Positions 2,565-35,610 of a DNA stretch of 64,000 nt are shown here, piece after piece. Position 1 is the first letter of the stretch. Every line of letters starts with the position of its first letter. Source of the DNA: Promethearchaeota archaeon (GTDB lineage: Archaea; Asgardarchaeota; Lokiarchaeia; Sigyniarchaeales; SOKP01); NCBI GenBank assembly GCA_016839765.1, contig JAEOTP010000012.1, positions 128,251 to 192,250 on the forward strand. Reading direction: 5' to 3'. Both the position numbers and the translations under genes were made by a program. The notes beneath the pieces were generated by a model. The model saw nothing but the letters and a program-made list of their open reading frames with translations. It was not told the origin of the DNA and searched no databases.

Positions 2565-3308
2565 TTAAACTTTTTCAAATAGATTACTATTTTCTTTTAA
2601 ATACCTAAGAATAATTTCGCTTAATTCTTTTTCAGCATCCTTTTTCGTGTTAAATTGGCTAGATTCTAAATTTAATGGAATCTTTAATATCTCCTTTTCA
2701 TTCTGATCTAATAATTTTGGATTTTTGGCAATCCATCGAAGATTATGTTGGGGCCCTAATTTCTCATATTCATATCTAATATTAGGAGTTAATTTTAACT
2801 TATTTTGTAAAAATTCTAATAATTCATTTTTAGAAAAATTAGATGATTCTTCAATAAAGAGATCCCAATTTTCTATGAAACGATCTATGATTTTTTGTTC
2901 CACTAATTTTAAATTATAATTAGAATCGATATAAAGGGCCCCGCAAATGGCTTCAAAAACATCTGCAAGGATAGAAGTGCCTTCTACACTTTGTTTTTTA
3001 GAGGAAAAAATATAGTTAATTAACCTCATATTTGAGGCGATTTTCGAAAATGTGCGATTATTTTCTAAACATTGTTTAGTTTTAGTTAATTTTCCGGGAT
3101 CATTTTCTCCTTCATTATAAATTTTAAGACTAAAAATCAATTTAATAATCGAATCTCCTAGGGTTTCTAGAATCTCATAATGTGGTAAATCGTTTTCGTT
3201 TCCATATTGTGGAGTTGTTAATGCTTGAAGCAGAATTTCAGAATTATTAAATTTATAATCAATGAATTTTTGAAACTCTATTAATTTAAGCTCAATTTGC
3301 TTATTCAT
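2565..3308 (-). CDS. rnc: Ribonuclease III family protein with a degenerate dsRBD
   Basis: QALT, signature EILETLGD (canonical ERLEFLGD), ADVFEAICGALYID, and a C-terminal dsRBD-like region KNELLEFLQ...GPQH...KKDAE. Confidence 0.85.
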   Translation of the reverse strand: MNKQIELKLIEFQKFIDYKFNNSEILLQALTTPQYGNENDLPHYEILETLGDSIIKLIFSLKIYNEGENDPGKLTKTKQCLENNRTFSKIASNMRLINYIFSSKKQSVEGTSILADVFEAICGALYIDSNYNLKLVEQKIIDRFIENWDLFIEESSNFSKNELLEFLQNKLKLTPNIRYEYEKLGPQHNLRWIAKNPKLLDQNEKEILKIPLNLESSQFNTKKDAEKELSEIILRYLKENSNLFEKV

Positions 3309-3368
3309 AATCCTAACTATAAATATATTAAGAAAAATTTAAAAACTTAAACAAAACTAATTTATTAT

Positions 3369-3794
3369 ATGGAAAAAGATAAGCTTGATGAAACCCTCTC
3401 AACTATTAAATCTATTGATAAAAAAAAAATAGAAATGGAAAAAAATCTATCTGAATTACCTATTTTATCCAGAAAGGAAATGCTTATAGAAATAACAAAC
3501 GATATTATAAAGCAACATAAGATTTTACATGAGGAGGGTTTCTCGAAAGAGAGTGCTTTTATATCTGAGCCTAGTGAGGCAGACTCTATTTCAGTTATTC
3601 TTGATGATTTAATTTCAAATATTAAAAAAACCCCTTCGAAGAAGATAATATACCTACGATTATTTTTAGATAGATTTCATGAAATTTCTGAACAAGATAA
3701 AAATGTAATAATTCAATCTATAAAGGATGAGCATCCAGAAAAATTAAAAGAAAAAATACTCCCTTTAATTAGTGTATTTAAATTAGAAACTTAG
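3369..3794 (+). CDS. Hypothetical helical protein
   Basis: 141-aa ORF with ATG filling the gap between flanking genes; no motif recognised. Confidence 0.6.
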   Translation: MEKDKLDETLSTIKSIDKKKIEMEKNLSELPILSRKEMLIEITNDIIKQHKILHEEGFSKESAFISEPSEADSISVILDDLISNIKKTPSKKIIYLRLFLDRFHEISEQDKNVIIQSIKDEHPEKLKEKILPLISVFKLET

Positions 3795-3830
3795 AATTTT
3801 AAATAATAAGGAAATTTGGAATTGATACTT

Positions 3831-4226
3831 TTAATATTCAAACAATTTAAGTAAAACCAATACGTTTTTAATTCCTCTTATTTTCATTCTTCCTGTAAGG
3901 ATTTTTCCAACTATACTCCCCATTGAAATGTCTTCTCCTCCTAATAAATCTACAAATATTTGAGTTTTCGCTTGTAATAATCCATCCCAACCAACTACTT
4001 TCTTTTTTATATTTTCTTTTGGTTTGTTTTCGATACCCTCAATATAGACACTTCCTTTATCAATTACCAATAAAGCCGCATATTTGCCATCTTTTGCATT
4101 TAACAGAATTTTGAGTTCAGTATCCTTAAAGTCCTCTTTGAATTTTTCGATGCTATTTAGCGGCTCTACTTGCTTTGCTACTACTCCTGCAAATCCTTTT
4201 AATCTTTTCTTCTTTTCCTCACTCAT
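3831..4226 (-). CDS. SCP2 sterol-carrier-like protein
   Basis: 131 aa with C-terminal FVDLLGG...ILTGRMKIRG, typical of the SCP2 fold. Confidence 0.6.
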   Translation of the reverse strand: MSEEKKKRLKGFAGVVAKQVEPLNSIEKFKEDFKDTELKILLNAKDGKYAALLVIDKGSVYIEGIENKPKENIKKKVVGWDGLLQAKTQIFVDLLGGEDISMGSIVGKILTGRMKIRGIKNVLVLLKLFEY

Positions 4227-4379
4227 TAATATCCGCTCATTCTATTTTTTTTCTATTTAGTAATTAATTAAATCTAATATGATTTAAAGCTTTAAAAATT
4301 ACAAAACTTTTAAATATTCTAGGTCAAAAGAAAGAACATGTAATGAACTAATTAAGCACAGATCCCCTAATTACCTGCG

Positions 4380-20003: not shown

Positions 20004-23000
20004 CTATCTTGTACTTTGAATAAAACCTTTTTCTTTTCTTTGCCTCTCTTCCCATTTTTTACGTTCCGACCGAAGTCTAAAAAGATCTACATCTTTATAT
20101 ATCAGACCCTCTTCTTTTGCTGGAATGTTTCTTTCAATACGATCTTTTTCTGGCGTGTAGATGAGTGATTCACCAAATTCAGCTACATTAGCAAAAAAAC
20201 TATAGGCATAAATCGATCTACGTGCGTCAAAATGAGCCGCTTTAAAGTCAGCAGTAACAGGTGTAAATGCCGGATTTAATACAATGTCTACAGCAGGCTC
20301 AAAATTCTTTAATTCAACTCTTAAATCCATATCAAGGAAGTCTCGACATATCGCGATAGCAATTCTTCCGTATTCAGTATTACAGACCAAAATTTTACGA
20401 GGTATTGAGCTGGTTTCTATTGCTTCTTTGAACTTTTTATCTTTAAAGTGAATTATGGCAGGAATATGCTTTTCTTGTTTCCATAGAACTCTTTCAGGAG
20501 AGATAACCATACTTATATTTTGTTTTGTTTCTTGATCGTGATAAGAACCTGGAATGATATACATATTATATTTCTTGGCGAGATTTGATATCTCTTCTAA
20601 AAGTTCTATATAGTTTAAATCTATAGTCATTTCTGGAAAAATTAGAATATTAATTTTATGGCTACTAGCATTATCAACCATTTCTTTAACTTTACTTATC
20701 AAGGTTTTTATTTTTTCCTTTTTAAATCCCAATAGACCAGAGGATTTCTCTTCAAAAAAATCAGTTATAATATCGCCGGTTTTTGATAAGCCAATTTGAG
20801 CAATTCCTATTCTAAATTGACTTTTTTGGGTATTTAAGTCTTGTTTAAGAAAATCTGTATAAATAATTTTATACTTTTTCTTTTCAATTTTTTCTTCTAC
20901 ATATCTTCTTATTATATTTTCTGTGATTTGATGGACTTCACTCAATCTAGGAGATTGACTAATTTCTATAGGGCAAGCTGGAGCAATAATACCAGTTGTA
21001 CTTCCAGAGATCTCAGGCTTTTTAATTGAATTTAAAGCAGAAAATAAAATCTTTTCCTCCTTTTCAATCAATTCAATACGATTTAACACTTCATTTTGTT
21101 TATCTTCATAACCTGCTTTACCGAAAAGTTCTGCTGTCGATTTTAAAATTTGTTCTCCTAATTTTAGAAGTCTTTCTTTCTCTTTTAGGTCCATCTCTTC
21201 ATCTGCTTTAATTATATGCCATACACCATCAAAATAAGTAGAAGTAGCTATAGCCCAATCTGCACCATTTTTAAAACCTCCCTTCTCATAAGAATTTGCA
21301 GCTCCTCTTAACATTGCTTTAATGTTTGGGTACAATTTCCCTTTAGTTTCTGAGTCATAAGACTCATCAAATTTACATCCTAATTTTAAGGCATTACAGA
21401 AGGCAGAATTTCCTGATGCTAATAATTTCATTTTACTATCTTGAAAGAGTTGACTTGCCATCAAGAAAAGATCTGCGGCCTCTGCATATCTTTCAGGCTC
21501 CAAATAATTTTCAGCAAGTTCCATATTTTCCCAAGCTCTACAAAGATAATATATTGCTTCAAGATCTTTTTTTTCCTTTTCTATTTTATATCGTGTACAT
21601 ACATTCCTAAATTGAGAAGCAGCTTTTCCAAAATGTTCAGAAGCTTTAAAATGCTCACCCTGTTTTCCTAAAATCCTTCCTTCCTCCAGATTTATCTTTG
21701 CAGAGCAATAACTTATTCTTAATTTAGCCACTTTCTCAAGGTTCTCTATTCTCTCTTTAACTTCTCTTAATTTCGAAGATTTTGATTTTTCAGCTAGGAT
21801 ATCTACAATGTTTTCAAAGGCATTTTGACTTTCTTTATATTTATTAATTGTCTCCCTTTGCTTTTCTTGCTTGCTGAAATGTTCCGCTTCTTCCAATAAT
21901 GCCCATGCTTCATAGTAGTGGGATTCAAAATTGAACTTTGGAATATTATTTTGGATTTCACTTGCTTTTTGATAACTTTCTTTTGCCATTAGATGTTCTT
22001 CATTCCTATGGAATGACTTAGCCTTCTCTACTAAATTCCAGGCTGTTGTATATTCAACTTTTTCTATAATATTTTTTCTTAGAGGTTTTTGCTCTACAGT
22101 ATCAAGTAAATTCTGATAAATTTCTTGTGCTTTTTCATAATAATTTGCAGAGTCAGAATAATTTCCAATTCGGTCTTCTATATGCGCAAGATATTCATAA
22201 GCAGTGGCAGTATAATAAAAGAATTTCCTCTTCTTACTTTCCTGTTCAACCAATAGAAATGCATCTTTAGCTCGTTCAAATGTTTCAGATTGCTGAGTTA
22301 GAATGCCGAGTTCTTGGTATAATAATCCTAAGCGTATTTGCGCTGCGATTATTCCTGTCGGAGATTCAACTTCATTTCCAAGATAATTCTTGTGAGCTTC
22401 AATTGATAATTTAAGCAATTCTATTTTATTTACAACTTTTTTTGATAAATCTGCCTGAGTTTTATAAGATTTAAATAAAGAAGAGTATCCTGCTGCTATA
22501 GAAAATCCTCCTCTATAATTTTTAGCTAGATTTTCTGCCTCCATGGCATAACTCATCATTTTATCTATATATTTATTTTGCTCATCCTGTACATTTGTAA
22601 GATATGCTAATTTTGAATAACACCATGTTAATGATTGGTATGACCAAGTTAACATAGGTACGAAAGAAAAAACTTCTAAAGATTCTTTGGCGTATTGAAT
22701 AGCTAACTTAGCATACTTTTTTTGTTGGTCAGGTTTAATAAAACTTCGTTGAGAAAGATTAGTATAATAAAAAGCAGGGAAAATGGTTCTAAGGAAATAA
22801 GGCTCAATTAATAATCCTTTATACACTTCCCCCAATTCTAAAAGAGTATGCACGTCTTGCCATATTCTCTTTTGTACATAATTAAATCTTCTTAAAGAAG
22901 TTGCTAAATAATTTAAATAAAATATAGCGATTATCATGTATCTTTTATCTTTGGTTTTTTTCAAATCTTCTAATCCAAGCCCCACCAATGCAATACCCTT

Positions 23001-23834
23001 ATCTCCATATTCTTTTTGTTTGATTGCGTCTTTTATAAACTGAATAGCAACTCCCGTATAAAATACTCCTGTATATATATTGACCTTAGCTATTATATGT
23101 GGATCTTTACATTCTTGAATAAGCTTTAAGCTAATATCTCCTATTGATTTAACTTTTTCAAAAAGCTTCTTACCATCATAGCCCAATTTAAAAGGCATTA
23201 TGAAGCTATATAAAAAGATTAGTGACCCGAAACCATACAAAGATTCAGCAATGATATCATAAAATTTTTCTTCATTCGCAATACTCCAAGCTTCTTCACC
23301 TATTTGTAAACCTTTTTTAATATAATTTTCGATTTCCTCTTGCTCAACACTACAAGTTGCTAGGTAATAAAGAGACTGTGAAGCACTACCTAAACTCCTT
23401 GCTGTACTTTTTTGATCATCATCATTTCTATAAATCTCACTTGATTTTACAAATAACTCGTAAGATTTTTTAAAGTTTACTTTTCCCTCCATTACAGAAT
23501 TACCAAGTACTCCTTTGATGCTCAATATTACCGCTTCACATTCTAAACCCTCTGGAATCTTTTTAATCTGATTAAATAAATTTAAGGCATTTTCATACGC
23601 TTTAATTGCTAGGTTGCTTATACCATTAAATTCATCTGATGTATCAGTAGTATGAGATGCCTTTGCATAAGCATAACCTACCTTCATGTAATATTTAGCA
23701 GCTTTTTCCAATAAATTTTTATCTAGAAATGCCTTTGCTACTTGATCATATAAGGATGCCGCATTCTGCCAATTATAATTCTTTTCCTCTGCTTTTGCTT
23801 CATTTATTAATTTATTTTGAATGATTCTTATCAT
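20004..23834 (-). CDS. TPR/alpha-solenoid protein with C-terminal carbon-nitrogen hydrolase domain (copy 1)
   Basis: About 950 aa of A/Y/K/E-rich helical repeats, then RIGIAQI, IFPEMT (E), QEKHIPA (K), ICRDF (C), NPAFT, ANVA. Confidence 0.8.
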   Translation of the reverse strand: MIRIIQNKLINEAKAEEKNYNWQNAASLYDQVAKAFLDKNLLEKAAKYYMKVGYAYAKASHTTDTSDEFNGISNLAIKAYENALNLFNQIKKIPEGLECEAVILSIKGVLGNSVMEGKVNFKKSYELFVKSSEIYRNDDDQKSTARSLGSASQSLYYLATCSVEQEEIENYIKKGLQIGEEAWSIANEEKFYDIIAESLYGFGSLIFLYSFIMPFKLGYDGKKLFEKVKSIGDISLKLIQECKDPHIIAKVNIYTGVFYTGVAIQFIKDAIKQKEYGDKGIALVGLGLEDLKKTKDKRYMIIAIFYLNYLATSLRRFNYVQKRIWQDVHTLLELGEVYKGLLIEPYFLRTIFPAFYYTNLSQRSFIKPDQQKKYAKLAIQYAKESLEVFSFVPMLTWSYQSLTWCYSKLAYLTNVQDEQNKYIDKMMSYAMEAENLAKNYRGGFSIAAGYSSLFKSYKTQADLSKKVVNKIELLKLSIEAHKNYLGNEVESPTGIIAAQIRLGLLYQELGILTQQSETFERAKDAFLLVEQESKKRKFFYYTATAYEYLAHIEDRIGNYSDSANYYEKAQEIYQNLLDTVEQKPLRKNIIEKVEYTTAWNLVEKAKSFHRNEEHLMAKESYQKASEIQNNIPKFNFESHYYEAWALLEEAEHFSKQEKQRETINKYKESQNAFENIVDILAEKSKSSKLREVKERIENLEKVAKLRISYCSAKINLEEGRILGKQGEHFKASEHFGKAASQFRNVCTRYKIEKEKKDLEAIYYLCRAWENMELAENYLEPERYAEAADLFLMASQLFQDSKMKLLASGNSAFCNALKLGCKFDESYDSETKGKLYPNIKAMLRGAANSYEKGGFKNGADWAIATSTYFDGVWHIIKADEEMDLKEKERLLKLGEQILKSTAELFGKAGYEDKQNEVLNRIELIEKEEKILFSALNSIKKPEISGSTTGIIAPACPIEISQSPRLSEVHQITENIIRRYVEEKIEKKKYKIIYTDFLKQDLNTQKSQFRIGIAQIGLSKTGDIITDFFEEKSSGLLGFKKEKIKTLISKVKEMVDNASSHKINILIFPEMTIDLNYIELLEEISNLAKKYNMYIIPGSYHDQETKQNISMVISPERVLWKQEKHIPAIIHFKDKKFKEAIETSSIPRKILVCNTEYGRIAIAICRDFLDMDLRVELKNFEPAVDIVLNPAFTPVTADFKAAHFDARRSIYAYSFFANVAEFGESLIYTPEKDRIERNIPAKEEGLIYKDVDLFRLRSERKKWEERQRKEKGFIQSTR

Positions 23835-23884
23835 CCCTAATTGTTCATTAATACTAAATTCGAGATATTGGTTTTCTGATTATA

Positions 23885-23935
23885 AATTTCTTAGCTTTAA
23901 GAATAATTAATAATAGATGTTTCAATTTAAAACAT
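23885..23935. repeat. Duplicated intergenic element (copy A) with an ATGTT-N9-AACAT inverted repeat
   Basis: 23885-23921 is identical over 37 bp to 27847-27883. Palindrome arms at 23917-23921 and 23931-23935. Confidence 0.8.
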
Positions 23936-23974
23936 TTTACATAAATTATTCCAGAAATTAGAATAGGGAAAAAG

Positions 23975-26900
23975 TTACGATCTTGTACTTTGGATAAATT
24001 GTCTTTCTTTTTTCTGCTCTTTTTCCCATTTTTTACGTTCCGATCGAAGTCTAAAGAGATCTACATCTTTAAAAATTAAGCCTTCTTTACCTGGAGGGAC
24101 ATTTCTTTCAACTCGTTCCTTTTCTGGTGTATATATAAGAGAATTCCCATAATCGGCGATATTAGCAAAGAAAGTATAAGCATAAATTGATCTACGAGCA
24201 TCAAAATGAACTGCTTTGAAATCAGCTGTAACGGGCGTAAAAGCTGGGTTTAAAACAATATCCACTGGGGGCTCGAAATTTTTTAACTCAACCCTTAGAT
24301 CCATATCAAGAAAATCTCGGCATGTTGCAATAGCTATTCTTCCATATTCTGTATTACACACTATTGTTTTATGCGGTAAAGTAGTTGTATCTATTCCTTC
24401 TTTAAATCTACTTCTCTCTAGGCTAATTATTGCAGGTATATGTTTTTTTTGTTGCCAGAGAATTCCTTCAGGACCTATAACTAAACTAACATTACTTTTT
24501 ACTTCAATGTTGTGATAAGATCCAGGGATAATATACATTTCATATATCTTAGCAAGATTTGATATATCCTCCAGAAATTGCTTATATTTGAGATCTACTG
24601 TCATTTCTGGAAAAAGTAAAATATCTACGCTTTCTTGATGAGCCTTTTCAATCATTTCCTTAACTTTTGATTCAACATCATTAACTTTCTCTTCTTTAAG
24701 TGTGAGAAGCCCCTTAGGTTTTTCTTCGTAAAACTCATTCATGATATCACCGGAATTAGAAATACCGATTTGAGCAATACCAACTCTACACTGGTTCCTT
24801 GGGGATTTGGGATGATCTTTTAACAAATCCTTATATTCTATTTTATATTTTTTTATTTTACTGTCGATTTCTAAGAATTTACTCACTTCTTCAGAGTATT
24901 GTTGAATTTCACCTATCCGTGGTGATTGGCTTGTTTCTATTGGACATGATGGTGTAATTATCCCTTCAATACTTCTTGAAACAGAGGGCTTATTAATTGT
25001 GTTTAAGGCGGAAACAAGTATTTTTTCCTCTTTAATTACTCTATCTAATCTTTCTAAAACTTCTCTCTCTTTGTCTTTATAACCGGCTTTATGAAAGAGT
25101 TCTGCTGCTGACTTCAAATAATTTGATCCAAAATTTAAAAATTCTTGTTTTTTATTTACATCTAATTCATCATCGGCTTGAATTAAGTACCATGCTGCAT
25201 CGAAATAAATTGATGTTGCAAGTGCCCAGTCTGCACCATTTTTAAAACCACCCTTTTCATATAAATCTGCTGCTTTTCTAAGAATTGATTTAACGTTTGG
25301 ATACAATGTTGTTTTAATTTCTATATCATGGGATTGATCAAATTTACATCCCTCTTCTAGAGCTAAACAAAAATTTGAATTAGCCTGAGCTAGGAATTTC
25401 AATTTACTTTGTGTAAAGAAATCACTAGCTTCTATGAATAATTTTGCTGCTTCTGCGAATTTTTCTGGATCCTCATAGTTTTCAGCTAATTCCATGCTTT
25501 CCCAAGCTCTACAGAGATAATATATTGCTTCTAATTCTGCTCGCTCTCTTTTAATTTTATATAATACACAAATATCTCTGAATTGAGATGCTGCATTGTT
25601 AAATTTTTCAGCAGCTGCAAGGTGATCTCCCTTTTTTCCTAAAATTCTTGCCTCATCAAGATTTATTCTGGCAGAACAATGATTCATCCTTATTTTAGCT
25701 ACTTTCTCAAGTTTTTTTAATTCTTTTAACCTTCTAACATTTTTCCTTATAAATCTAATACTAAAGACAGCATTCTCAAAATGTTCTCTAGTTTTCTCAT
25801 AGCTCCTTATAGCTTGATCATGTTTTTCCTGCTTACTAAGATCTTCAGCTTCTTCTAAAGCTATCCAGGCTCCATAATAAACTGCTTCATAATTAAAACT
25901 AGGTAATGTTTTTAAGATCTCAGATGCTTCTCCATAACATTCTTTAGCATATAAATGCTGTTCCCTTTTATGATACGCCTTAGCTTTTTCAATCAAATTC
26001 CAAGCCTTAGCATAATTTATCTTCTCATTAACCCTGTCTTTTAATGGTTTATATTCAATTGCTAGTAATGATTTATCATGAGCATCACGCGCTTTTTCAT
26101 AGTATTCTGCAGAAATCATGTGATTTCCTAGACGATCTTCTAAACGGGCAATAAACTCATAACAAGCCGCAGAGTAATATGCATAACCTTTTTCCAAACT
26201 ATCTTCAATTACACGGAGGAATAGCTCTCTTGCTTCCATTAAGGGTTTTTCTTCAGTTGTTAGAATTCCTAAATCCTCATAAAGCTGCCCTAAACGTATT
26301 TGAGAGGCTAAGTATAGTCTATAAGATTCTATTGAATATTTAATATTTTTCTTTGCAGCCTCTATTGCAGTTAATAGATTTAGTTTTTTTTCTTTTTTAT
26401 CTTTAGTAATATCAGCTATAGTTTTATATGCTCTATAAATGGAAGTTAAGCCGGCCGATCTAACATTTCCTCCTTTATAGTCTTTAGCGATATTTTCTGC
26501 TACTTTTGCGTAATCTAACATCTTTTGAATATATTCCTCTCGAGGATCACCTTCTATGGCAAGATTGACTAACTGAGAGTATAAAAGAGTTAAAATTTGA
26601 TAGGCAAAGATTATATAAGGTCCAAACGCGAGTCTCTTTAAAGTTTCATTAGCGTATTGAATCCCTATTTTTGCATATGATTTCCTTGTATCCGCCCTTA
26701 AAAAACTTCTACTTGTAAAAGTGTTATAATAACTTATAGGTATAAAATCCATTAAACAATAAAGCCCAGTATAGAGATTATCGAAAATTTTATCTAATTT
26801 TAGAACGTCATGCACATCCTTTAAAATTCTTTTCTGTAAATATTCATATCTGCCAAAAACAGCAGCTTGATAATCTAAACCATATCGGCTGGTTATAGCT

Positions 26901-27796
26901 CCAAGAACATTTCTAGATTTTCTAAAGAATGTGATACCTTTTTCTAATGACTCAAAACCTTTTTCAGCAAGCTTTACTCGCTCCTTCTTTTCTTCAACAA
27001 GTAATCCTCCGAGTATACAATTTTGAAAACCAAATGTACCATAAATACCTCCAAGAATATTATAATCATCACAATTCTCAGCTAACTGTAATGTTTCTTC
27101 ACATCTTTTTAAAAATCTTTTTAGGATCTCTTCATGTTTTTTATCTCCATAAGTAAGTTCCGCCCACCGATTATAATTAATTACCATATTTTCACCCCAC
27201 AATAACCTTTCTCTAATTTTGATTGTATCATTTTCTTTTAAAAGAATCCAAGACTTTTCTATTAAATTACGAGCCATCTGGCTATAAAAGGCTAATTCAG
27301 AAGGATCTTTACATAGTACCATAGAAGAAATTATGGATTCTATTGTCAGGATTGATAATTTTGCACAGTTTTTCTTATCATTTGCTTTTGAATATTTTTC
27401 TTTAAGTTCTAAAAAAATATTAATTGATTTTTCTAAATTTTTTCTCGCTTCTTCGACTGAAGTAATCACATAACTCATAGCATTAAGAGCTTTAGCTTTA
27501 CATTCCATATTTAATAGTTTATTATTGATTTGTTCAAAAAGACGCTCTGCTCTACGAAAAGCCTTAACAGAATGCTTATTCCAATTCAAATAATCTTCTT
27601 TAGTTTCTGATGCCAAAACGGCCCGATGGCAAATGTCTCCAAGCTTATTGTAAATATTGGCGGCATTTTTTAACCTATTTTGATCTAACATTGCTTTAGC
27701 AGCTTGTTCATATAACCCTGCTGCTTTCTCCCAATTATAATTCTTTTCTTCTGTTTCTGCTTTACTTAGTAATTCACCTTGAATGATTCCTACCAT
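23975..27796 (-). CDS. TPR/alpha-solenoid protein with C-terminal carbon-nitrogen hydrolase domain (copy 2)
   Basis: Collinear paralog with LFPEMT, QKKHIPA, TCRDF. The ATG at 27796 (MVGIIQ) aligns with MIRIIQ of copy 1. Confidence 0.8.
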   Translation of the reverse strand: MVGIIQGELLSKAETEEKNYNWEKAAGLYEQAAKAMLDQNRLKNAANIYNKLGDICHRAVLASETKEDYLNWNKHSVKAFRRAERLFEQINNKLLNMECKAKALNAMSYVITSVEEARKNLEKSINIFLELKEKYSKANDKKNCAKLSILTIESIISSMVLCKDPSELAFYSQMARNLIEKSWILLKENDTIKIRERLLWGENMVINYNRWAELTYGDKKHEEILKRFLKRCEETLQLAENCDDYNILGGIYGTFGFQNCILGGLLVEEKKERVKLAEKGFESLEKGITFFRKSRNVLGAITSRYGLDYQAAVFGRYEYLQKRILKDVHDVLKLDKIFDNLYTGLYCLMDFIPISYYNTFTSRSFLRADTRKSYAKIGIQYANETLKRLAFGPYIIFAYQILTLLYSQLVNLAIEGDPREEYIQKMLDYAKVAENIAKDYKGGNVRSAGLTSIYRAYKTIADITKDKKEKKLNLLTAIEAAKKNIKYSIESYRLYLASQIRLGQLYEDLGILTTEEKPLMEARELFLRVIEDSLEKGYAYYSAACYEFIARLEDRLGNHMISAEYYEKARDAHDKSLLAIEYKPLKDRVNEKINYAKAWNLIEKAKAYHKREQHLYAKECYGEASEILKTLPSFNYEAVYYGAWIALEEAEDLSKQEKHDQAIRSYEKTREHFENAVFSIRFIRKNVRRLKELKKLEKVAKIRMNHCSARINLDEARILGKKGDHLAAAEKFNNAASQFRDICVLYKIKRERAELEAIYYLCRAWESMELAENYEDPEKFAEAAKLFIEASDFFTQSKLKFLAQANSNFCLALEEGCKFDQSHDIEIKTTLYPNVKSILRKAADLYEKGGFKNGADWALATSIYFDAAWYLIQADDELDVNKKQEFLNFGSNYLKSAAELFHKAGYKDKEREVLERLDRVIKEEKILVSALNTINKPSVSRSIEGIITPSCPIETSQSPRIGEIQQYSEEVSKFLEIDSKIKKYKIEYKDLLKDHPKSPRNQCRVGIAQIGISNSGDIMNEFYEEKPKGLLTLKEEKVNDVESKVKEMIEKAHQESVDILLFPEMTVDLKYKQFLEDISNLAKIYEMYIIPGSYHNIEVKSNVSLVIGPEGILWQQKKHIPAIISLERSRFKEGIDTTTLPHKTIVCNTEYGRIAIATCRDFLDMDLRVELKNFEPPVDIVLNPAFTPVTADFKAVHFDARRSIYAYTFFANIADYGNSLIYTPEKERVERNVPPGKEGLIFKDVDLFRLRSERKKWEKEQKKERQFIQSTRS

Positions 27797-27846
27797 CCTC
27801 AACTATTTATTAATATTAAATTAGCTATATTGGTTTCTTGGTTTTC

Positions 27847-27897
27847 AATTTCTTAGCTTTAAGAATAATTAATAATAGATGTTCCAGTTTAAAACAT
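27847..27897. repeat. Duplicated intergenic element (copy B) with an ATGTT-N9-AACAT inverted repeat
   Basis: 37-bp identity with 23885-23921. Palindrome arms at 27879-27883 and 27893-27897. Confidence 0.8.
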
Positions 27898-27936
27898 TTT
27901 ACATGAAATAATCATAAAATTAGATTTGGAAAAAAG

Positions 27937-30900
27937 TTATGATCTTGTACTTTGAATAAAATGAACTTCCTTATTTTGTTGTTTTTCCCATTTTTTACGT
28001 TCTGAACGCAATTTAAATAAATTAACATCTTTATATATCAAACCTTCTTCTTTTGTGGGTATTATTCTCTCAGTACGATCTTTTTCAGGAGTGTAGATGA
28101 GGGATTCACCAAATTCAGCAACATTAGCAAAAAAACAATAGGCATAAATCGATCTACGTGCGTCAAAATGAGCCGCTTTAAAATCAGCTGTGACTGGAGT
28201 AAAGGCTGGGTTAATGATTATGTCTACTGCTGGTTCGAAATTTTTTAATTCGACTCGTAAATCCATATCAAGGAAATCCCGGCAAATGATAACTGCAATT
28301 CTTCCATATTCTGTGTTACAAACAATTACATTTCGGGGAAGATCTCCAACCTCTATACCCTCTCTAAATTCTGTTCCTTTAAGTCTAATTGTGGCTGGAA
28401 TATGTTTCTCTTGTTTCCAGAGGATGCCCTCTGGTCCAAATACCATAGCTATATTTCTCTTTGTCTCTTGATCGTGAAATGAGCCGGGAATTATGTACAT
28501 TTCATATAATTTAGCAAAATCTGAAATAACTTCTAAAATATCGCCGTAATTGAGATCAACTGTCATTTCTGGGAAGATTAATAAGTTGATGCCCTCTTTC
28601 TGTGCATTTTCGATCATGTTTTTAACTTTAGATCTTAAATATTCAACTTTAACTTCTCGAAGGCTCAAAAGGCCCGAATTCCTCATCTCATAGAATTCAC
28701 TTAAAAGATCTCCAGTTTCAGATATACCAATTTGAGCAATACCAACCCTGCATTCTCTTTTCTGAACTCTAGGATACTCTTTCAATAAATCTCTATATGT
28801 AATTCGATATTTCTTTTTAGTTATTTTTTCTCCTATAACTCTCCTCTCTTCTTCAGTGAACTGATACACTTCACCCAATCGAGGTGATTGACTAGTTTCT
28901 AAAGAACAAGCAGGAGCAATTATGCCCGTTGTACTACTAGAAATCGCAGGTTTTTTAATAGTATTTAGAGCCGAAACTAATATCTTTTCTTCTTGTTCCA
29001 ATCTTTCCAAACGACCCAATACCTCATTTTCCTTGTCTTTATAACCAGCTTTACTAAAAAGTTCTGCTGCAGATTTTAGATAATTAGCCCCAATATCTAA
29101 AAGATTTTTTTTATTGCTAATTTCTAACTCTTCATCCGCTCTTATTAAGTGCCATACTGCATCGAAATATGTCGATGTAGCTAACGCCCAATCACCGCCA
29201 TTTTTAAAACCTCCTTTCTCATAAGAGGAAGCTGCTGTTCTTAACATTGATTTGATTTTGGGATACAATTGAGCCTTTATTTCCGCTTCATAAGTTTCAT
29301 CAAATTCACATCCAAGTTTTAAAGCTTGACAGAAAGAAGAATTACCTGATGCTAGTAATTTCAACTTACTATCTGTGAAAAGATTACTTGCTTTTATAAA
29401 TAAATCAGCAGATTCTGAAAATCTATCATGATCCTCATATTTTTCGGCAAGCTCCATGCTTTCCCAAGCTCTACATAGATAATATACCGCCTCTAATTCA
29501 ATTCGTTCTTTTTCAGTTTTAAAGAGATTGCAAACATATCTAAACTGTGAAGCTGCTGAAGCAAATAGTTCTGCAGCGGTTACATGTTCACCTTGTTTTC
29601 CTATAATTCTTGCCTTTTCAACGTTTATTCTAGCAGAACAATATGATGTCCTTAATCTGGCTACTTTCATGAGTTTATCAATTCTATCGATTTCCATTTT
29701 GTCTTTAGATTTATCTAAGTATTGTTCTAATGATTTTATAGCTTTTTCAAATGTTTCTATGGTGTTATTATATTGCTCTATAGCTTCTTCGTGTTTTTCT
29801 TGTTTACTGAGTTGTTCTGCAATTTCTTGGGATGCCCATGCAGAGTAATAATTTGCTTCATAATTGAAACTTGGTAGATTTTTTAGAATTTCACATGCAC
29901 TAATATAGCTCTCCTTAGCTTTTTGATGGTTTTCACTTTTATGATTAACTTTCGCAATTTCAATTAAGGACCAAGCCTTAACATAATTCAATTTCTCATT
30001 AATTCTCTTTATTAATGGTTTATACTCAACATTTTTTAATGATTCTGCATGTGCTTTCTGTGCCATCTCATAATAATTTGCAGAAGCTGTATGATTACCC
30101 AAGCGATCCTCTATACGTGCTAAGTATTCAAATGTAGCTGCTGTATATGATTGGTAGCCTCTTTTTTCGCTTTCTTTAGCTACTTGGAGGAATAAATCTT
30201 TTGTCTTTATAAGTATATCATTCTGTTTAGTTAAAATGCCAAAATCTTCATAAAGAAGTCCTAAGCGTATTTGAGCAGTAATGATACCTGTTCGAGATTC
30301 ATTTGAATGCTCCACATATTTCTCGGAAGCATCTATAGCAGCTGCTAAAAATTCAATTTTGTTTTCTTCATCCTGAGTAATATCAGCGAGAGTTTTATAA
30401 GCTCTATAGAGAGAATTATAGCCATAAGCTCGAACATATCCTCCTTCATATTTCTCTGCAACTTTCTCGGCTTGTTTGGCGTATTCAAGCATCTTTTGTG
30501 CATATTCCTTTTGCTTATCTTTTGAACCAGCTAGAATGGATAATTGTGAATACGAATATGTTAATGCTACATATGAATCTGATAAAAAAGGTAAAATTAA
30601 TATTGTCAAATTCTTCTTTGCATATTCAATTGCTTTTTCTGCATATGATTTCCTCTTATCTGAGGTAAAATAACTCCTCTGAGCATTGTTAGCATAGTAA
30701 GCCCCCAATAATGTATATGCTCGGGAACGCCATAGAGTATATGTATCTTTTATTATTTCTTTTATCTCGATAAACTTTTCAAGATCGATAGAAATTCTCC
30801 TCTGCGCATATTTTACTCTACCTCCAAGCATAGCCCACATAATGAGCCAATAAATTGATTCATTTATTAAGGATATATTCTTTAATTTTCTGGCAAGAGT

Positions 30901-31770
30901 AGAAGATTTTTCTAGTAATCTCAATCCCCTATCAAGATATTCTCTTTGCTCAGTTTCATCTTCAATAAGATTAATGGCAAGGTGACTATTTACGTTGCCT
31001 AAAATCATACAAGTCATTGCAAAAGCTTCCAAATTATCATATTTCTCAACAAATTCTAAGATTTTATTGCATCTTAATAAAAAATCTTTAAAATATTCTC
31101 TATAACGCTCGTCCCATCTAAATGGTTGCAAATAATTTCTGCCAATGTTCATATAATACTCACAATATATTGATTCAGCGAGAGATTGAACATTTTTGAA
31201 TTTCTTTGCAAGATTTTGAGCTTTCAGAGCTAAACCTATATTTTTTTCGAATAAATCTGCGACTTCTATAAAATCACTAAAAAAATATCCTCCTGCTACA
31301 GAAACATAAAGGGCACGACTTAATATCCTAACGAAATGTTCTTGTTCACCTTTCTTAGAATATTCTTCACTTGATTCAATGAAAAGATCATAAGAATTTA
31401 CATAGCTCTCTTTTGCTTCTTCGATGGAACTTGCAATAATCCCACTGAAATATTTAACTTCTGCTTTGCATTCTAATTTCTTAGGTATATTTCCAATTTG
31501 TTCAAAGATATTCGCTGCATCTGTATAAGCTTTTATAGTTTGTCTAATATATTCTACTAACTTTTCAGATGTTTTTACAGTGAACGCCGCGTGTGAAAAT
31601 GCATATCCAAGTTTACTATAAGTTTCAGCAACTTTTTCCAGTAGATTTTTTTTCAAATAACTATTAGCAACTTGCTTGTAAAATTTAGCTGCTTCTAACC
31701 AATTGTAAGATTTTTCTTCTGCTAGTGCCTTCTCCAATAAATCCTCTTCTTCTTGTTTTATTCCAGTCAT
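27937..31770 (-). CDS. TPR/alpha-solenoid protein with C-terminal carbon-nitrogen hydrolase domain (copy 3)
   Basis: Collinear paralog with IFPEMT, QEKHIPA, ICRDF and the shared terminus FIQSTR(S). Confidence 0.8.
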   Translation of the reverse strand: MTGIKQEEEDLLEKALAEEKSYNWLEAAKFYKQVANSYLKKNLLEKVAETYSKLGYAFSHAAFTVKTSEKLVEYIRQTIKAYTDAANIFEQIGNIPKKLECKAEVKYFSGIIASSIEEAKESYVNSYDLFIESSEEYSKKGEQEHFVRILSRALYVSVAGGYFFSDFIEVADLFEKNIGLALKAQNLAKKFKNVQSLAESIYCEYYMNIGRNYLQPFRWDERYREYFKDFLLRCNKILEFVEKYDNLEAFAMTCMILGNVNSHLAINLIEDETEQREYLDRGLRLLEKSSTLARKLKNISLINESIYWLIMWAMLGGRVKYAQRRISIDLEKFIEIKEIIKDTYTLWRSRAYTLLGAYYANNAQRSYFTSDKRKSYAEKAIEYAKKNLTILILPFLSDSYVALTYSYSQLSILAGSKDKQKEYAQKMLEYAKQAEKVAEKYEGGYVRAYGYNSLYRAYKTLADITQDEENKIEFLAAAIDASEKYVEHSNESRTGIITAQIRLGLLYEDFGILTKQNDILIKTKDLFLQVAKESEKRGYQSYTAATFEYLARIEDRLGNHTASANYYEMAQKAHAESLKNVEYKPLIKRINEKLNYVKAWSLIEIAKVNHKSENHQKAKESYISACEILKNLPSFNYEANYYSAWASQEIAEQLSKQEKHEEAIEQYNNTIETFEKAIKSLEQYLDKSKDKMEIDRIDKLMKVARLRTSYCSARINVEKARIIGKQGEHVTAAELFASAASQFRYVCNLFKTEKERIELEAVYYLCRAWESMELAEKYEDHDRFSESADLFIKASNLFTDSKLKLLASGNSSFCQALKLGCEFDETYEAEIKAQLYPKIKSMLRTAASSYEKGGFKNGGDWALATSTYFDAVWHLIRADEELEISNKKNLLDIGANYLKSAAELFSKAGYKDKENEVLGRLERLEQEEKILVSALNTIKKPAISSSTTGIIAPACSLETSQSPRLGEVYQFTEEERRVIGEKITKKKYRITYRDLLKEYPRVQKRECRVGIAQIGISETGDLLSEFYEMRNSGLLSLREVKVEYLRSKVKNMIENAQKEGINLLIFPEMTVDLNYGDILEVISDFAKLYEMYIIPGSFHDQETKRNIAMVFGPEGILWKQEKHIPATIRLKGTEFREGIEVGDLPRNVIVCNTEYGRIAVIICRDFLDMDLRVELKNFEPAVDIIINPAFTPVTADFKAAHFDARRSIYAYCFFANVAEFGESLIYTPEKDRTERIIPTKEEGLIYKDVNLFKLRSERKKWEKQQNKEVHFIQSTRS

Positions 31771-31794
31771 ATGAGAAGTTAATTATAATTTATA

Positions 31795-31875
31795 TTAGCT
31801 AGGGCTTTTTAAGACAATTACTTTCGGATTGCCCAAAACCTTTAATGTCACTTCATTCTCATGTTGAGATTCCAT
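31795..31875 (-). CDS. Possible 26-aa small ORF upstream of the TPR-nitrilase array
   Basis: MESQHENEVTLKVLGNPKVIVLKSPS*, preceded by GGGTGA. Short, so it could be a chance ORF. Confidence 0.3.
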   Translation of the reverse strand: MESQHENEVTLKVLGNPKVIVLKSPS

Positions 31876-31999
31876 TATTTTCACCCTATTAATGTTAAAA
31901 ATATTTAAATTTAAGATAATTCTATTTTCCCGATTTATAATCTTTACTCTTCAAGATTATGTTTGAAATAAAAATGTATGTTGTATTATAACTTATTTT

Positions 32000-32149
32000 T
32001 TATCCAAGATGCTTTTTATTATCTTTACTTAGATTATAATAAATTATTTTATCATTAGGTGGTTTTTGCTCAGGAATTTCTTTCACTTCAACATCTAAGA
32101 TTTCTGGTTGATGATTTTTGCGGTTAATTTTATCTTTTTTCTCGTTCAC
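32000..32149 (-). CDS. 49-aa small ORF or gene remnant
   Basis: GTG start after GTGATT; (M)NEKKDKINRKNHQPEILDVEVKEIPEQKPPNDKIIYYNLSKDNKKHLG*. Confidence 0.4.
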   Translation of the reverse strand: MNEKKDKINRKNHQPEILDVEVKEIPEQKPPNDKIIYYNLSKDNKKHLG

Positions 32150-32376
32150 TTATTTAATCACAATAGAAATTTTATTTTAATTTATTATTTATTTCAAGTC
32201 TTGTCACAAACACTTTAATTAATTCTAATATCATTTATTAAATTAATTACAAATGTGTAGATAGAGAAATATAAAATTTTTTTTGACAAGATAGAAATTA
32301 TAAATATTATTGAAGAGATATTAATGGTTTCAATTTTAGATAATAATAATGGTTAATAGAAATTAGGGCAGGAATT

Positions 32377-32868
32377 ATGGCTATTAATAAGGATTATGTA
32401 TACCCAGTATATATCTATCTAAACGTTTTAAATGATATTAAAGATCTCTGTAAAAATTATGAAAATGAAATATTTGGTTATCTAATTGGATTGATATTCA
32501 AATGGAAAGAACAAATCTATATTGTTATAGAAGATAAAATATTTATTGAAGGAACATTCCATAGCCATAAGATGTCAACCGCTCAAATTGAAGGAACAGC
32601 AGGAGAATATGATAAAGAATTTCAAAGATTAAAAAAAAATGAAAAAAACAAGAATTTGAGGGTTGTTGGCTGGTGGCATTCTCATCCCGATTTAGGTTGT
32701 TTTTTGTCCCCAACTGATTTGCGTACTCAACAACACTTTTTTCCTGAAAGTTATCAAGTTGCATTAGTTATAGATCCTATCAGAGACACCTACGACTTTT
32801 TCACATTAGATATATCTTCTAATAAAAAATACAAAACTATTAGCAGTGCAGTTATATCTAAAATTTAA
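32377..32868 (+). CDS. JAB/MPN+ (JAMM) metallo-isopeptidase, Rpn11-like
   Basis: EIFGYLIG, VVGWWHSHPDLGCFLSPTD (complete JAMM motif), VALVIDP. Confidence 0.93.
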   Translation: MAINKDYVYPVYIYLNVLNDIKDLCKNYENEIFGYLIGLIFKWKEQIYIVIEDKIFIEGTFHSHKMSTAQIEGTAGEYDKEFQRLKKNEKNKNLRVVGWWHSHPDLGCFLSPTDLRTQQHFFPESYQVALVIDPIRDTYDFFTLDISSNKKYKTISSAVISKI

Positions 32869-32900
32869 ATGATATAAATTGAAAATGTTAGAGAAAAAGT

Positions 32901-33776
32901 ATGAATAAGAAAAAGGAAGAGCAAGAGATTAAAATCATAGGGAAAGATTCCATCGATTCAGATAAATATGATCGCCAGAAACGAATTAAAGGTTGGGATC
33001 AAGATAAGATTTCTAATGCTAGGATAATGGTAATTGGTGCTGGAGCTACAGGGAATGAACTTGTAAAAAATTTAGTTTTAACAGGGATAGGTAAAATCTA
33101 CCTGATTGATTATGATTTTATAGACACATCTAATTTAAATCGTTGTATTTTTTTTAATGAAAAAACTGCGAAAAAGAAAGAATACAAAGTTGATATTATT
33201 AAACAAGCTTCTCAGATTCTAAATCCGGATGTTGAAATTTTAGCCATCAAAAAAGAATTGAATAAAATAGATAAGAGCCTTTATAAGCAATGTGATGTTA
33301 TCTGCTCTTGTTTGGATAACATTGAAGCTCGAATTGAGGCAAACAATTATGCTTACTATTATAATACTCCATTTATTGACTCTGGAATTGATGGTCATTT
33401 TGGAACTATCCAAGCAGTCTACTCTGAAGTAAAAGAAGCTGCTTGTCTACAGTGTGGAATTTCTAACAGCGATTTAGATTTAATGTGGAAAAAATTTTCC
33501 TGTACAGGGCAAGAAATTGATTCTGAAAATGGTGAAACAACAAGAAAAATAGCTACTGTTATTACAACAACATCAATAATTGGAGGGATTCAATCCCAGC
33601 AAGTCATAAAATTTATACTTGGTACCGATTACTTTAATAAGAAAAATACTTGGGACAAAAAAATAGGTGAACCTTTAATTGGGAAACAATTAACTTATAA
33701 TGGTCTTACAAATAAATTTAATATTATTGAGAAAATAAAAGATCCTAATTGTTGGATATGTTCATATAAAAAATAA
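32901..33776 (+). CDS. Ubiquitin-activating E1-like enzyme (ThiF/UBA)
   Basis: YDRQ, IGAGATG, DYDFIDTSNLNR, CLDN, CLQC, putative catalytic FSCT, terminal CWIC. Confidence 0.92.
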   Translation: MNKKKEEQEIKIIGKDSIDSDKYDRQKRIKGWDQDKISNARIMVIGAGATGNELVKNLVLTGIGKIYLIDYDFIDTSNLNRCIFFNEKTAKKKEYKVDIIKQASQILNPDVEILAIKKELNKIDKSLYKQCDVICSCLDNIEARIEANNYAYYYNTPFIDSGIDGHFGTIQAVYSEVKEAACLQCGISNSDLDLMWKKFSCTGQEIDSENGETTRKIATVITTTSIIGGIQSQQVIKFILGTDYFNKKNTWDKKIGEPLIGKQLTYNGLTNKFNIIEKIKDPNCWICSYKK

Positions 33777-33826
33777 AATAAATTCCTACAAATTTAAATA
33801 AATTAAAGTTGTGATTATGATTAAAT

Positions 33827-34387
33827 ATGCCTGAATTACCACTCGAAATTTGGAAGGATCGAATAAATAACGAGATAAAAAGTTTAGAAAGACTCAAGAT
33901 TATTGAAAAAGATTCAATAATTTGGCAAGAAAATAATGTAGAGTTCTTAATTATACTAAATGCATTAGGATTTATTCGAGAAATAGAAAACCCTCAAAAT
34001 CTATTACCTAAAACATCCCATCGAATCCTTTTCAAACTAAATCGGTCTTTTCCCTATCCTGGCGGTATAGATTTTGCTTGGTATTCTAATATTTTTCATC
34101 CTAATATTCATCCTGTTGAATTACCCAATTCTATAGATCCAGGCACAGGTTATATTTGTTTAAATATTTTAAAACAATGGTCGAGATTGTCTGATCTAGA
34201 AACTACTGTGAAAGCATTAGAAAAATTATTAGAAGATCCAAATCCAGATGACCCTCTGAACTATAATTCATGCTTAGAAGCAGCAGAATTTTTTAAAAAA
34301 GTAGATCTTGAAACTTTAAAAAGCCAATATCATAATAGAGAATTGAAGGATGAAGACGATAAAGATATAATCATAATTGATGATTAA
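33827..34387 (+). CDS. Ubiquitin-conjugating E2 (UBC fold)
   Basis: RINNEI, FPYP, IFHPNI, GYICLNILKQWS (catalytic Cys), LLEDPNPDDPLN. Confidence 0.92.
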   Translation: MPELPLEIWKDRINNEIKSLERLKIIEKDSIIWQENNVEFLIILNALGFIREIENPQNLLPKTSHRILFKLNRSFPYPGGIDFAWYSNIFHPNIHPVELPNSIDPGTGYICLNILKQWSRLSDLETTVKALEKLLEDPNPDDPLNYNSCLEAAEFFKKVDLETLKSQYHNRELKDEDDKDIIIIDD

Positions 34388-34389
34388 AT

Positions 34390-34653
34390 CTAATAAGAAT
34401 ATCCACCAATAACTCTAGCCCACAAAGCTAATTTATCACTTTCTTTTAGTCCAAACTTATGGATAGCTTCTTCAATCGTTATGGCATTTGGTAATTCTTT
34501 ATCATGAAGCACTAAGATATATGACCGTTGCTCCACACTAATAATACCCATATGCTTTATAACAATATCGATAATACGTTCAATTTGGTGATGCTCTTTA
34601 ACATCAAGTTTTATTAATTTACCTGTTCTAGTATCTTCTACTGATAACCTCAT
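34390..34653 (-). CDS. Ubiquitin-like modifier precursor (GG followed by YSY)
   Basis: 87 aa with a beta-grasp pattern, ending GLKESDKLALWARVIGG-YSY. Its stop lies 2 bp from the E2 stop. Confidence 0.85.
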   Translation of the reverse strand: MRLSVEDTRTGKLIKLDVKEHHQIERIIDIVIKHMGIISVEQRSYILVLHDKELPNAITIEEAIHKFGLKESDKLALWARVIGGYSY

Positions 34654-34760
34654 GGAATTTTTACCTACTTATCTAAGTTTTTAATAACTAACTGAATTTC
34701 AATAGTTTTATATTAATAATTTAGACACTTTGCCTATTTAATATTGTTTTGAAAATCTTA

Positions 34761-35042
34761 TTAACTCGGAGGACTCGTTTTTGGAAATAGCTTTTTATAT
34801 TGCTCCTTCAAATCTTTCTTAAATGGTTTAATTGGTTTTGATTCATCTAAAGGTTTACTACATACTCAACATCTATTCTCTAAATTACTTAATTCTTCAG
34901 AACATTTTAAACAATATAGTGCACCACATTTGGGGCATATATGATTAATTTTTGACACTTTATATTTACATACTAAACAGATTCTTTGTTCTCGAAAAAA
35001 AGTCACTTCTTCCTCAGTAATACTTTGATAATATACGTACAA
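34761..35042 (-). pseudogene. Cys8 RING-like zinc-finger frame interrupted by an in-frame TGA (34866-34868)
   Basis: Manual translation: LYVYYQSITEEEVTFFREQRICLVCKYKVSKINHICPKCGALYCLKCSEELSNLENRC*VCSKPLDESKPIKPFKKDLKEQYKKLFPKTSPPS*. Confidence 0.75.
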
Positions 35043-35217
35043 TTTTGTATATAAATATGATCACAAAAAAACGATGAAATACGATCATACCAAAAATAAA
35101 GCTAATTCATCATAAATATTCTTAAAAGATAAATCAAACAAAAAAATCAAAAATTAAATTATAAAAAAGTTATTAAATTAGTAAGTACATAATCTAAAAT
35201 TTTAGTTGTTTCAGTCC

Positions 35218-35610
35218 ATGCCCGATTCCGACGAAAATAAACTCATTGTTAAGTTAGTTAAATGTTCTCGTTGCGGGAATCCCTATATGATTAAAAAAGG
35301 AGGGAAAGAATCGGGAAAATTGATCTGTGAAAACTGTATTAAATTAGAGCAAAGAAAAAAGCAACTTGCCAATTCAGTTATAGGGTCTCAAAAGAAAATA
35401 GAAATCTCTATTGAAAAAATTAAAAATGAATTGAAACTAGCAAAATCACAATATAGAAAGGATTTATATAAGGAAAAGATTAAGAAACGATCAGAAACTT
35501 TAACGAAATCTGTTGAACTTTTACAAAAAATTAGAGACACTGAAGATGAAAAATATATTGATGAATACAAAAAATTATTTGAAAAATTGAAGCAAAATTC
35601 TTATGATTAA
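35218..35610 (+). CDS. Zn-ribbon plus coiled-coil protein
   Basis: CSRC...CENC followed by a K/E-rich coiled coil. ATG at 35218. Confidence 0.7.
   Translation: MPDSDENKLIVKLVKCSRCGNPYMIKKGGKESGKLICENCIKLEQRKKQLANSVIGSQKKIEISIEKIKNELKLAKSQYRKDLYKEKIKKRSETLTKSVELLQKIRDTEDEKYIDEYKKLFEKLKQNSYD

Follow-up and report, generated by a model that had tools for sequence, protein, structure and literature searches.

A probable immune-type link between ubiquitin-like tagging and toxic effectors in Asgard archaea

Conjugation of ubiquitin-like proteins (Ubls) has lately been tied to antiviral defense in bacteria, through Cap2 and Cap3 of the cyclic-oligonucleotide-based antiphage signaling systems (CBASS) and through Bil. 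Among prokaryotes, Asgard archaea have the nearest known relatives of the eukaryotic E1-E2-RING cascade. The Asgard ubiquitin clusters described in the literature are linked to ESCRT (10.1101/2023.07.25.550441; bioRxiv 10.1101/2020.10.19.343400). Nitrilases are described as uncommon among defense systems, and in the defense-associated reverse transcriptase DRT1 the nitrilase is the effector, requires oligomerization and has a conserved C-terminal tail as its cap (PMC13275509). Here we analyze a 64,000-nucleotide stretch of an Asgard genome (positions 128,251 to 192,250 of contig JAEOTP010000012.1, assembly GCA_016839765.1; hereafter the window) that brings these themes together. A preliminary description of the window, made from its letters and open reading frames, had proposed a triplet of solenoid genes ending in a nitrilase (carbon-nitrogen hydrolase) domain, a JAB-E1-E2 operon and a gene for a pro-Ubl. 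All of these genes were found where they had been placed, with the solenoid genes divergent to the operon.

Our preferred reading, which we regard as an even call, is that the triplet encodes sensor-effector proteins of conflict or immune type, with a coupling to an accessory Ubl system, and that this system acts on or through solC, a TPR block in the solenoids (amino acids (aa) 620-1000 of paralog 1, P0001). The locus points to an undescribed archaeal link, probably of immune type, between ubiquitin tagging and toxic effectors. In the literature that could be searched, we found neither the operon nor the solenoid-nitrilase/TIR/RING family described, and in public records the proteins are named just 'carbon-nitrogen hydrolase family protein' and labeled as Asgard (Lokiarchaeia/Promethearchaeota).

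Links between the solenoid family and the cassette

We surveyed the 10 kb on either side of every E2 homolog in 135 genomes from one taxonomic family, that of the window, and mapped the window proteins onto each neighborhood. The cassette has a recurrent order. A gene for a longin-like plus P-loop protein (the longin-GTPase) is followed by JAB, E1 and E2, then by a convergent Ubl gene and usually by a gene for a membrane protein ending in a RING-like finger. Counted from the locus maps, with tandem GTPase copies taken into account, a GTPase-type gene lies directly upstream of JAB at 58 of 61 evaluable loci, the exceptions being the window, L041 and L109.

At 15 of these 61 loci the GTPase is fused to solC. 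For 11 of them, in two genera (L042, L043, L068-L076), the first gene of the operon encodes a single protein of 868-882 aa made of longin-like, GTPase, solC and nitrilase parts, and ends 32-68 bp ahead of JAB. The other four (L044, L045, L081, L084) begin with a GTPase-solC gene that lacks the nitrilase. When a module is joined to the gene that opens an operon, this is classical Rosetta-stone evidence for joint function. Secondary Ubl loci, lying away from E1 and E2, repeat the pairing: a convergent GTPase-solC gene (with or without nitrilase) together with membrane-RING and winged helix-turn-helix flanks was found in 17 of 19. The genome to which the window belongs (3.32 Mb in 96 contigs, 95.9% complete) has two such satellites. 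That on contig C95 consists of an intact longin-GTPase-solC-nitrilase gene (L004:114-2756, plus strand), a Ubl gene (2917-3177, minus strand) and a membrane-RING gene (3304-4251, minus strand). The satellite on contig C76 (L064:7840-10812) has its own Ubl paralog, and stop codons interrupt its GTPase-solC gene. In some genomes (L122 on G124:C70 and L123 on G105:C1) the satellite module of membrane RING, GTPase-solC, Ubl and winged helix-turn-helix occurs as a tandem duplicate.

A third kind of link is a solenoid variant that carries a RING-like finger in place of the nitrilase (L135-L142, proteins of ~1070-1085 aa). This finger is homologous to that of the cassette membrane protein (BLASTP 1e-13), and all 10 genomes with solenoid-RING genes are positive for the cassette E2. 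The Ubl gene of two loci (L039 and L041) has GTPase-TIR genes as neighbors. Overall, 27 of the 70 E2 loci have a gene with solC, nitrilase or TIR no more than 10 kb away on either side, against a chance expectation of ~1 locus (our own estimate, for ~3 copies placed randomly in a ~3.7-Mb genome). The adjacency is more than chance would give; the related genomes are non-independent, but the arrangements differ. The connection between solenoid-nitrilases and cassette, which had been proposed from the window, therefore reaches past one adjacency, by way of operon-gene fusions, satellites and the solenoid-RING variant. In evolutionary terms the family is tied to the accessory Ubl system, and we infer that the tie is functional as well.

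Several findings weigh against this coupling. Genes with solC occur in 74 of the 135 genomes, and 22 of these have neither the cassette E2 nor Ubl, including genomes that are 98-100% complete (G002, G148, G065, G101 and G123). In the resulting table, 52 genomes have solC and E2, 22 solC only, 18 E2 only and 43 neither, the genomes being related and the counts non-independent; for this reason the association counts overstate the support that they give. The long solenoid forms are found in at least 20 genomes in which neither the cassette E2 nor Ubl was found, and their closeness to a cassette (within 10 kb) is confined to a single sub-lineage within the genus, made up of the window, G151, G022 and G032. 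In genomes without the cassette, long forms that occur singly are surrounded by metabolic genes and not by obvious defense islands. A Pfam scan of the long forms found no NTPase switch. In the window itself the GTPase gene of the cassette is deleted and the RING gene is dead, which could mean decay instead of function.

These observations bear on an alternative in which the adjacency is incidental: the long solenoid-nitrilases would be autonomous, the triplet would have expanded in a permissive intergenic site, and the sharing of solC would reflect domain shuffling. It draws on the cassette-less genomes, on the restriction of close linkage to one sub-lineage, on the distance of most long forms from any cassette (a five-gene array in G119 among them) and on the absence of the array from the same site in G149 and G026. 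We consider it unlikely, though a serious contender, since three independent kinds of linkage share solC (in-operon fusions in two genera, 17 of 19 satellite pairs and the solenoid-RING variant) and the fusion to the first operon gene is of the Rosetta-stone kind. The claim of a coupling between solenoids and Ubl machinery stands in part: fusions, satellites and the RING variant speak for it, and an obligate coupling does not hold. Because long forms occur without the cassette E2 or Ubl, the coupling is facultative.

The array is polymorphic at its syntenic site. In G149, where the flanking proteins are 78-99% identical to those of the window, and in G026, the cassette abuts a 271-aa flank gene and there are zero solenoids. 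At the same site G032 has two solenoids, one with TIR and one with nitrilase, and the window has three. On these counts the triplet represents an insertion or expansion, variable among relatives, at the edge of the cassette, and the window array is a recent one.

The solenoid scaffold and its outputs

The three paralogs are 49-52% identical over their full length (P0001 is 49% identical to P0002 and 52% to P0003), and identity rises along the protein. It is ~30% over aa 1-330, 42-49% over the next 290 aa, 57-62% over solC and 69-72% over the nitrilase. The alignment supports the N-termini as the variable part of the solenoids, as would be expected of sensors, in keeping with the sensor-like role that had been suggested for the solenoids; they are the most divergent part of the proteins. 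P0001 matches the Pfam model TPR_12 at 31 bits (cut-off 30.1), and its AlphaFold2 model has 13 consecutive helices over aa 600-930 (pLDDT ~88). The triplet proteins have stacked helical hairpin repeats of the TPR/alpha-solenoid type.

Upstream of paralogs 1 and 2, ~140 nt of intergenic DNA are nearly identical, while the adjoining N-terminal coding parts are only ~30% identical; the region upstream of paralog 3 is different. The near-identical DNA could be a conserved promoter or operator, or the product of gene conversion. A scan of the 606-bp spacer between triplet and JAB for bacterial-type promoters and terminators gave no enrichment, and bacterial models are not meaningful for an archaeon.

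The Pfam model CN_hydrolase (PF00795) matches P0001 at 37.2 bits and P0003 at 34.9 bits, above the cut-off of 23.2; P0002 falls just under it (22.1 bits), and its catalytic columns are nonetheless invariant in the alignment. The Glu-Lys-Cys triad (E1068, K1122 and C1163 in P0001 numbering) is invariant in 39 homologs and again in a separate 38-sequence nitrilase alignment. Much of the domain is invariant, including the final six residues, FIQSTR. These matches place the triplet in the nitrilase superfamily. The modeled domain has a predicted alpha-beta-beta-alpha nitrilase fold, with a pLDDT of only 50-70; its top Foldseek matches are Nit2 (2w1v, E 3e-6), cyanide dihydratases and amidases.

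The best hidden Markov model for the P0001 nitrilase is the PADLOC model of defense-associated reverse transcriptase nitrilases (RTasNitrilase, PDLC03804), at E 9e-14 compared with 3e-9 for the generic Pfam model; P0003 matches it at E 8e-12. The preliminary description had pointed to nitrilase-fold domains in defense-associated reverse transcriptases. The PDB relationship is more remote. A profile search of PDB sequences returned Nit2 (3e-5), beta-ureidopropionase and DRT1 (9yfd, 2e-3, over the segment from the Cys to the C-terminus), with DRT1 ranking under Nit2, and a single-sequence PDB search with the domain gave marginal matches only. Neither Pfam nor PADLOC matched a reverse transcriptase in any triplet paralog. 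Searched exhaustively by profile, the family comprised 52 clusters at E < 1e-30, and after a gap the next matches came at ~1e-19. Within the family, metagenomic proteins fuse the nitrilase to beta-helix/NosD repeats, to AAA_16 plus alpha/beta-hydrolase, or to alpha/beta-hydrolase alone (P0128, P0152, P0154, P0162). Among the 62 next-nearest nitrilase relatives outside the family, seven are fused to LRR, six to HEAT and three to nSTAND3; an RVT domain was found in 0 of the 62. In the viral contigs searched there was no solC-nitrilase relative.

Nta1 is a member of the nitrilase superfamily, and the preliminary description had suggested that the triplet might act by N-terminal deamidation or deconjugation. 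The domain would then be an Nta1-like protein amidase or deconjugase that makes or removes marks for Ubl-dependent degradation, an idea that gains some appeal because the domain is attached to protein-binding repeats and connected with a Ubl system. We found this highly improbable and did not retain it. No Nta1 chain appeared at E <= 10 in the PDB-sequence profile search, which did retrieve Nit2, beta-ureidopropionase and DRT1, and none was among the Foldseek top 50. The best model is that of a DRT-type nitrilase, the domain is exchanged for TIR, itself no protein amidase, and deconjugation is already supplied by JAB.

The exchange of outputs is marked by a common linker in the long solenoids (AP.CP.E.S), after which comes the nitrilase, a TIR_2 domain or the RING-like finger. 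TIR_2 takes the place of the nitrilase in L038 and L058 (E 4e-13 and 1e-16), and the copy number of the solC/solenoid family reaches 13 per genome. A repeat sensor joined to a nitrilase, with TIR as the substitute, looks like the pattern of conflict systems. One genome of another family in the same class (G060; L060-L062) has 12 solenoid matches, with open frames of ~1110-1155 aa (for instance L060:4820-8188). Those that we inspected (1122-1137 aa) share a conserved C-terminal domain of ~150 aa that is not nitrilase, TIR or RING and has no Pfam match; it may be a fourth output module. In a cassette-less genome, a single long solenoid-nitrilase gene (L054:5036-8866, G029:C30) has one TAA inside and is likely a pseudogene.

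The cassette and its state in the window

The positions of all genes and features are collected in Table 1.

Table 1. Genes and features of the solenoid-cassette locus (positions in the window)
Feature	Position	Strand	Evidence or remark
Solenoid-nitrilase paralog 1 (P0001, 1276 aa)	20004-23834	-	open reading frame and translation
P0001 CN-hydrolase domain, aa 1000-1276	~20007-20837		
P0001 TPR block solC, aa 620-1000	~20838-21977		
P0001 variable N-terminal helical repeats	~22845-23834		
Intergenic region upstream of paralog 1	23835-23990		~140 nt nearly identical to the region upstream of paralog 2
Solenoid-nitrilase paralog 2 (P0002, 1275 aa)	23975-27802	-	TTG start; ATG two codons further in
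Intergenic region upstream of paralog 2	27803-27960		~140 nt nearly identical to the region upstream of paralog 1
Solenoid-nitrilase paralog 3 (P0003, 1277 aa)	27937-31770	-	open reading frame and translation
Divergent spacer, 606 bp	31771-32376		between solenoid triplet and JAB
Spacer part aligned with DNA upstream of longin-GTPase genes	~31993-32268		blastn
Deletion scar	~32269-32294		~835 bp lost
JAB/MPN metalloprotease	32377-32868	+	Pfam JAB 47.9 bits, above cut-off; Prok-JAB 34.6 bits
E1-like ThiF/MoeB-type adenylating enzyme, 291 aa, CxxC pairs	32901-33776	+	Pfam ThiF 162 bits, above cut-off
E2, UQ_con	33827-34387	+	Pfam UQ_con 41.6 bits, above cut-off
Pro-Ubl, 87 aa	34390-34653	-	convergent with E2; translation ends VIGG-YSY
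RING-like finger pseudogene	34761-35042	-	read-through translation compared with intact orthologs
Zn-ribbon/coiled-coil gene	35206-35610	+	syntenic flank gene
Fe-S/flavoprotein gene, 847 aa	37116-39659		belongs to the conserved flank

The conjugation genes of the window are intact. The translated JAB retains the motif H-x-H-x7-S-x2-D, and the protein presumably matures the pro-Ubl and reverses conjugation. The E1 matches the NCBIfam models ThiF, MoeB, Ube1 and UbaA, all under their equivalog cut-offs; NCBIfam gave nothing specific for the solenoids, the cassette E2 or the Ubl. The Ubl has no Pfam match. In an alignment of 53 sequences, with a mean identity of 83%, its C-terminal GG is invariant. 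Because its gene is on the minus strand, converging on E2, the Ubl lies outside the operon.

The cassette E2 is divergent, with an HPN...C arrangement and a long loop insertion, and of the three UQ_con genes in the genome it scores lowest. The other two reach 88-90 bits, compared with 40 for the cassette E2. They lie at C17:130061-130468 and C23:10059-10484 and presumably serve the main ubiquitin system of the organism. Across the family, the cassette E2 was found in 70 of the 135 genomes and Ubl in 72, nearly the same ones, and within the genus only 15 of the 42 genomes searched have the cassette, the window genome included. The cassette is accessory and patchy in its distribution, extra to the two stronger E2s.

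Two parts of the recurrent arrangement have been lost from the window. By blastn, part of the spacer corresponds to the sequence that precedes the longin-GTPase gene in G149, G019, G151 and G022, and the window from 32295 onward aligns with the final ~60 nt of that gene and then with JAB. Between the two is a scar at which ~835 bp, with the entire longin-GTPase coding sequence, are gone, so that the retained upstream DNA abuts JAB; no remnant of the gene was found in the window by tblastn. The second loss concerns the RING-like frame that the preliminary description had included in the cassette. The frame is there, and so is its RING homology with relatives, but in the window it is dead. Where intact orthologs read NLENMCWVCNEP (copies compared: L067, L037, L036, L035 and L004), a TGG codon within the last C-W-x-C has become TGA, and the N-terminal membrane part is absent. 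We call the frame a pseudogene because of this replaced Trp codon and the missing membrane region. The matches of an intact relative to zf-RING_16 (22 bits, cut-off 27.4) and Prok-RING_1 are weak and sub-threshold. The window cassette having lost both its GTPase and its RING, trans-acting copies on C95 and C76 would have to supply both; an intact GTPase-solC-nitrilase fusion and a membrane RING survive on C95.

The RING-like finger itself (ITEEEV...C.VC...YICP.C...YC..C...CW.C) is greatly expanded in the archaeal family, with matches in 108 of the 135 genomes and as many as 22 in a single genome. The proteins that carry it range from ~70 to 1900 aa, and some genomes with the finger lack the cassette E2.

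The Zn-ribbon/coiled-coil gene had also been counted as part of the system, and we rejected it. It travels with a flank of Zn-ribbon, methyltransferase and ACT genes. In genus g1 its distance from the cassette varies, and it is absent from the cassette loci of other genera. It tracks the flank and not the cassette.

The first operon gene raises another explanation. The AlphaFold2 model of the 295-aa longin-GTPase (pLDDT 87, pTM 0.82) begins with a beta-beta-alpha-beta-beta-beta-alpha-alpha sandwich. The remainder folds like a small GTPase, with structural matches to Arl1, Arf1, Rab, MglA and the FeoB G-domain (TM scores by target 0.65-0.75). The P-loop GxxGVGKT and N-x-Q-D motifs are invariant, and no DxxG is evident. 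A Ras-family GTPase (Pfam Ras, 139 bits) is often found upstream of the cassette as well. Together with the membrane RING and Ubl, these genes could form a non-immune, eukaryote-like trafficking or proteostasis module in which the TPR proteins are adaptors and the enzyme domains are metabolic or regulatory. The modeled longin-like sandwich with its Arf/Arl/Rab/MglA-type GTPase and the frequent Ras-family gene fit such a module, and longin-GTPase fusions and links between ubiquitin and ESCRT are known themes among Asgard eukaryotic-signature proteins (bioRxiv 10.1101/2020.10.19.343400; 10.1101/2023.07.25.550441). We consider it improbable given the patchy, accessory distribution and variable copy number, the swapping of TIR and DRT-like nitrilase on one scaffold, the location of the canonical E2s elsewhere in the genome, and the fusions of the nitrilase clade to LRR, HEAT and nSTAND3, which are hallmarks of conflict systems.

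A possible mechanism and comparison with known systems

If the solenoid-nitrilases are sensor-effectors coupled to the Ubl cassette, they could work as follows. The variable solenoid would bind a foreign or aberrant protein, and binding would license the output module. By analogy with DRT1, the nitrilase is probably oligomeric, with the FIQSTR tail as a lid, and would hydrolyze an essential amide-bearing molecule. TIR variants would consume NAD+, and RING variants would direct Ubl conjugation. The cassette would arm, restrain or recycle the effectors by acting on solC or through it, while JAB would mature the GG-YSY end and reverse conjugation. Were the coupling functional, the locus would provide a testable system for how ubiquitin signaling and the control of innate-immune effectors were joined before eukaryotes, and a route to the substrate of defense nitrilases. 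A bolder reading, which we offer only tentatively, is that the solenoid family are archaeal pattern-recognition receptors with Ubl, TIR and nitrilase outputs and that the operon is an Asgard immune ubiquitylation pathway. If true, it would be a prokaryotic antecedent of eukaryotic antiviral signaling of the ubiquitin/ISG15 type with a genuine E1-E2-RING cascade.

Four groups of described systems are close enough to be compared. With NLR/Avs-type STAND proteins the solenoids share a repeat sensor with a variable end, a swappable effector (TIR and others) and paralog expansion. They differ in that the effector is C-terminal and that the short forms carry a small Ras-like GTPase. We rejected membership of the solenoids in the STAND/NLR class because the long forms lack a STAND NTPase (NACHT, NB-ARC or AAA_16).

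Bacterial type II CBASS (Cap2/Cap3) and Bil likewise have an accessory E1/E2/JAB set (with or without Ubl) that is linked in the genome to toxic effectors, TIR for example. The cassette E1 and JAB have domain-level PADLOC matches, and the E2 and Ubl have none; a CD-NTase was not found among the proteins scanned with Pfam and PADLOC. Unlike in these systems, the E1 and E2 are separate genes, with no Cap2 fusion, and a RING-type E3 and a GTPase are present.

The RT-nitrilase DRT1 (UG-class 3; PDB 9yfd; PMC13275509) resembles the solenoid family in its intact catalytic Cys, its conserved C-terminal tail and the fusion of the nitrilase to a large non-catalytic or regulatory part. In the solenoid family that part is a TPR-like N-terminal solenoid and not a reverse transcriptase, the host is an archaeon, and the two are only distantly related in sequence (PDB profile E 2e-3).

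The eukaryote-like ubiquitin operons of Caldiarchaeum and Asgard archaea, which encode ubiquitin, E1, E2, a small RING protein and an Rpn11-like JAB (PMC5654768), are close to the cassette in gene content. Both combine a Ubl ending in GG and a single-domain E1 of ThiF type with a UQ_con E2, JAB and a RING-like finger. The cassette differs in having no ESCRT linkage, in a divergent E2 that is extra to two canonical ones, in a RING that forms the C-terminus of a membrane protein (dead in the window), in a first gene of the longin-like/small-GTPase type, and in operon fusions to TPR-nitrilase or TIR. It is an Asgard E1/E2/JAB/Ubl/RING operon that is physically fused to and paired with TIR, DRT-like nitrilase effectors and a small GTPase.

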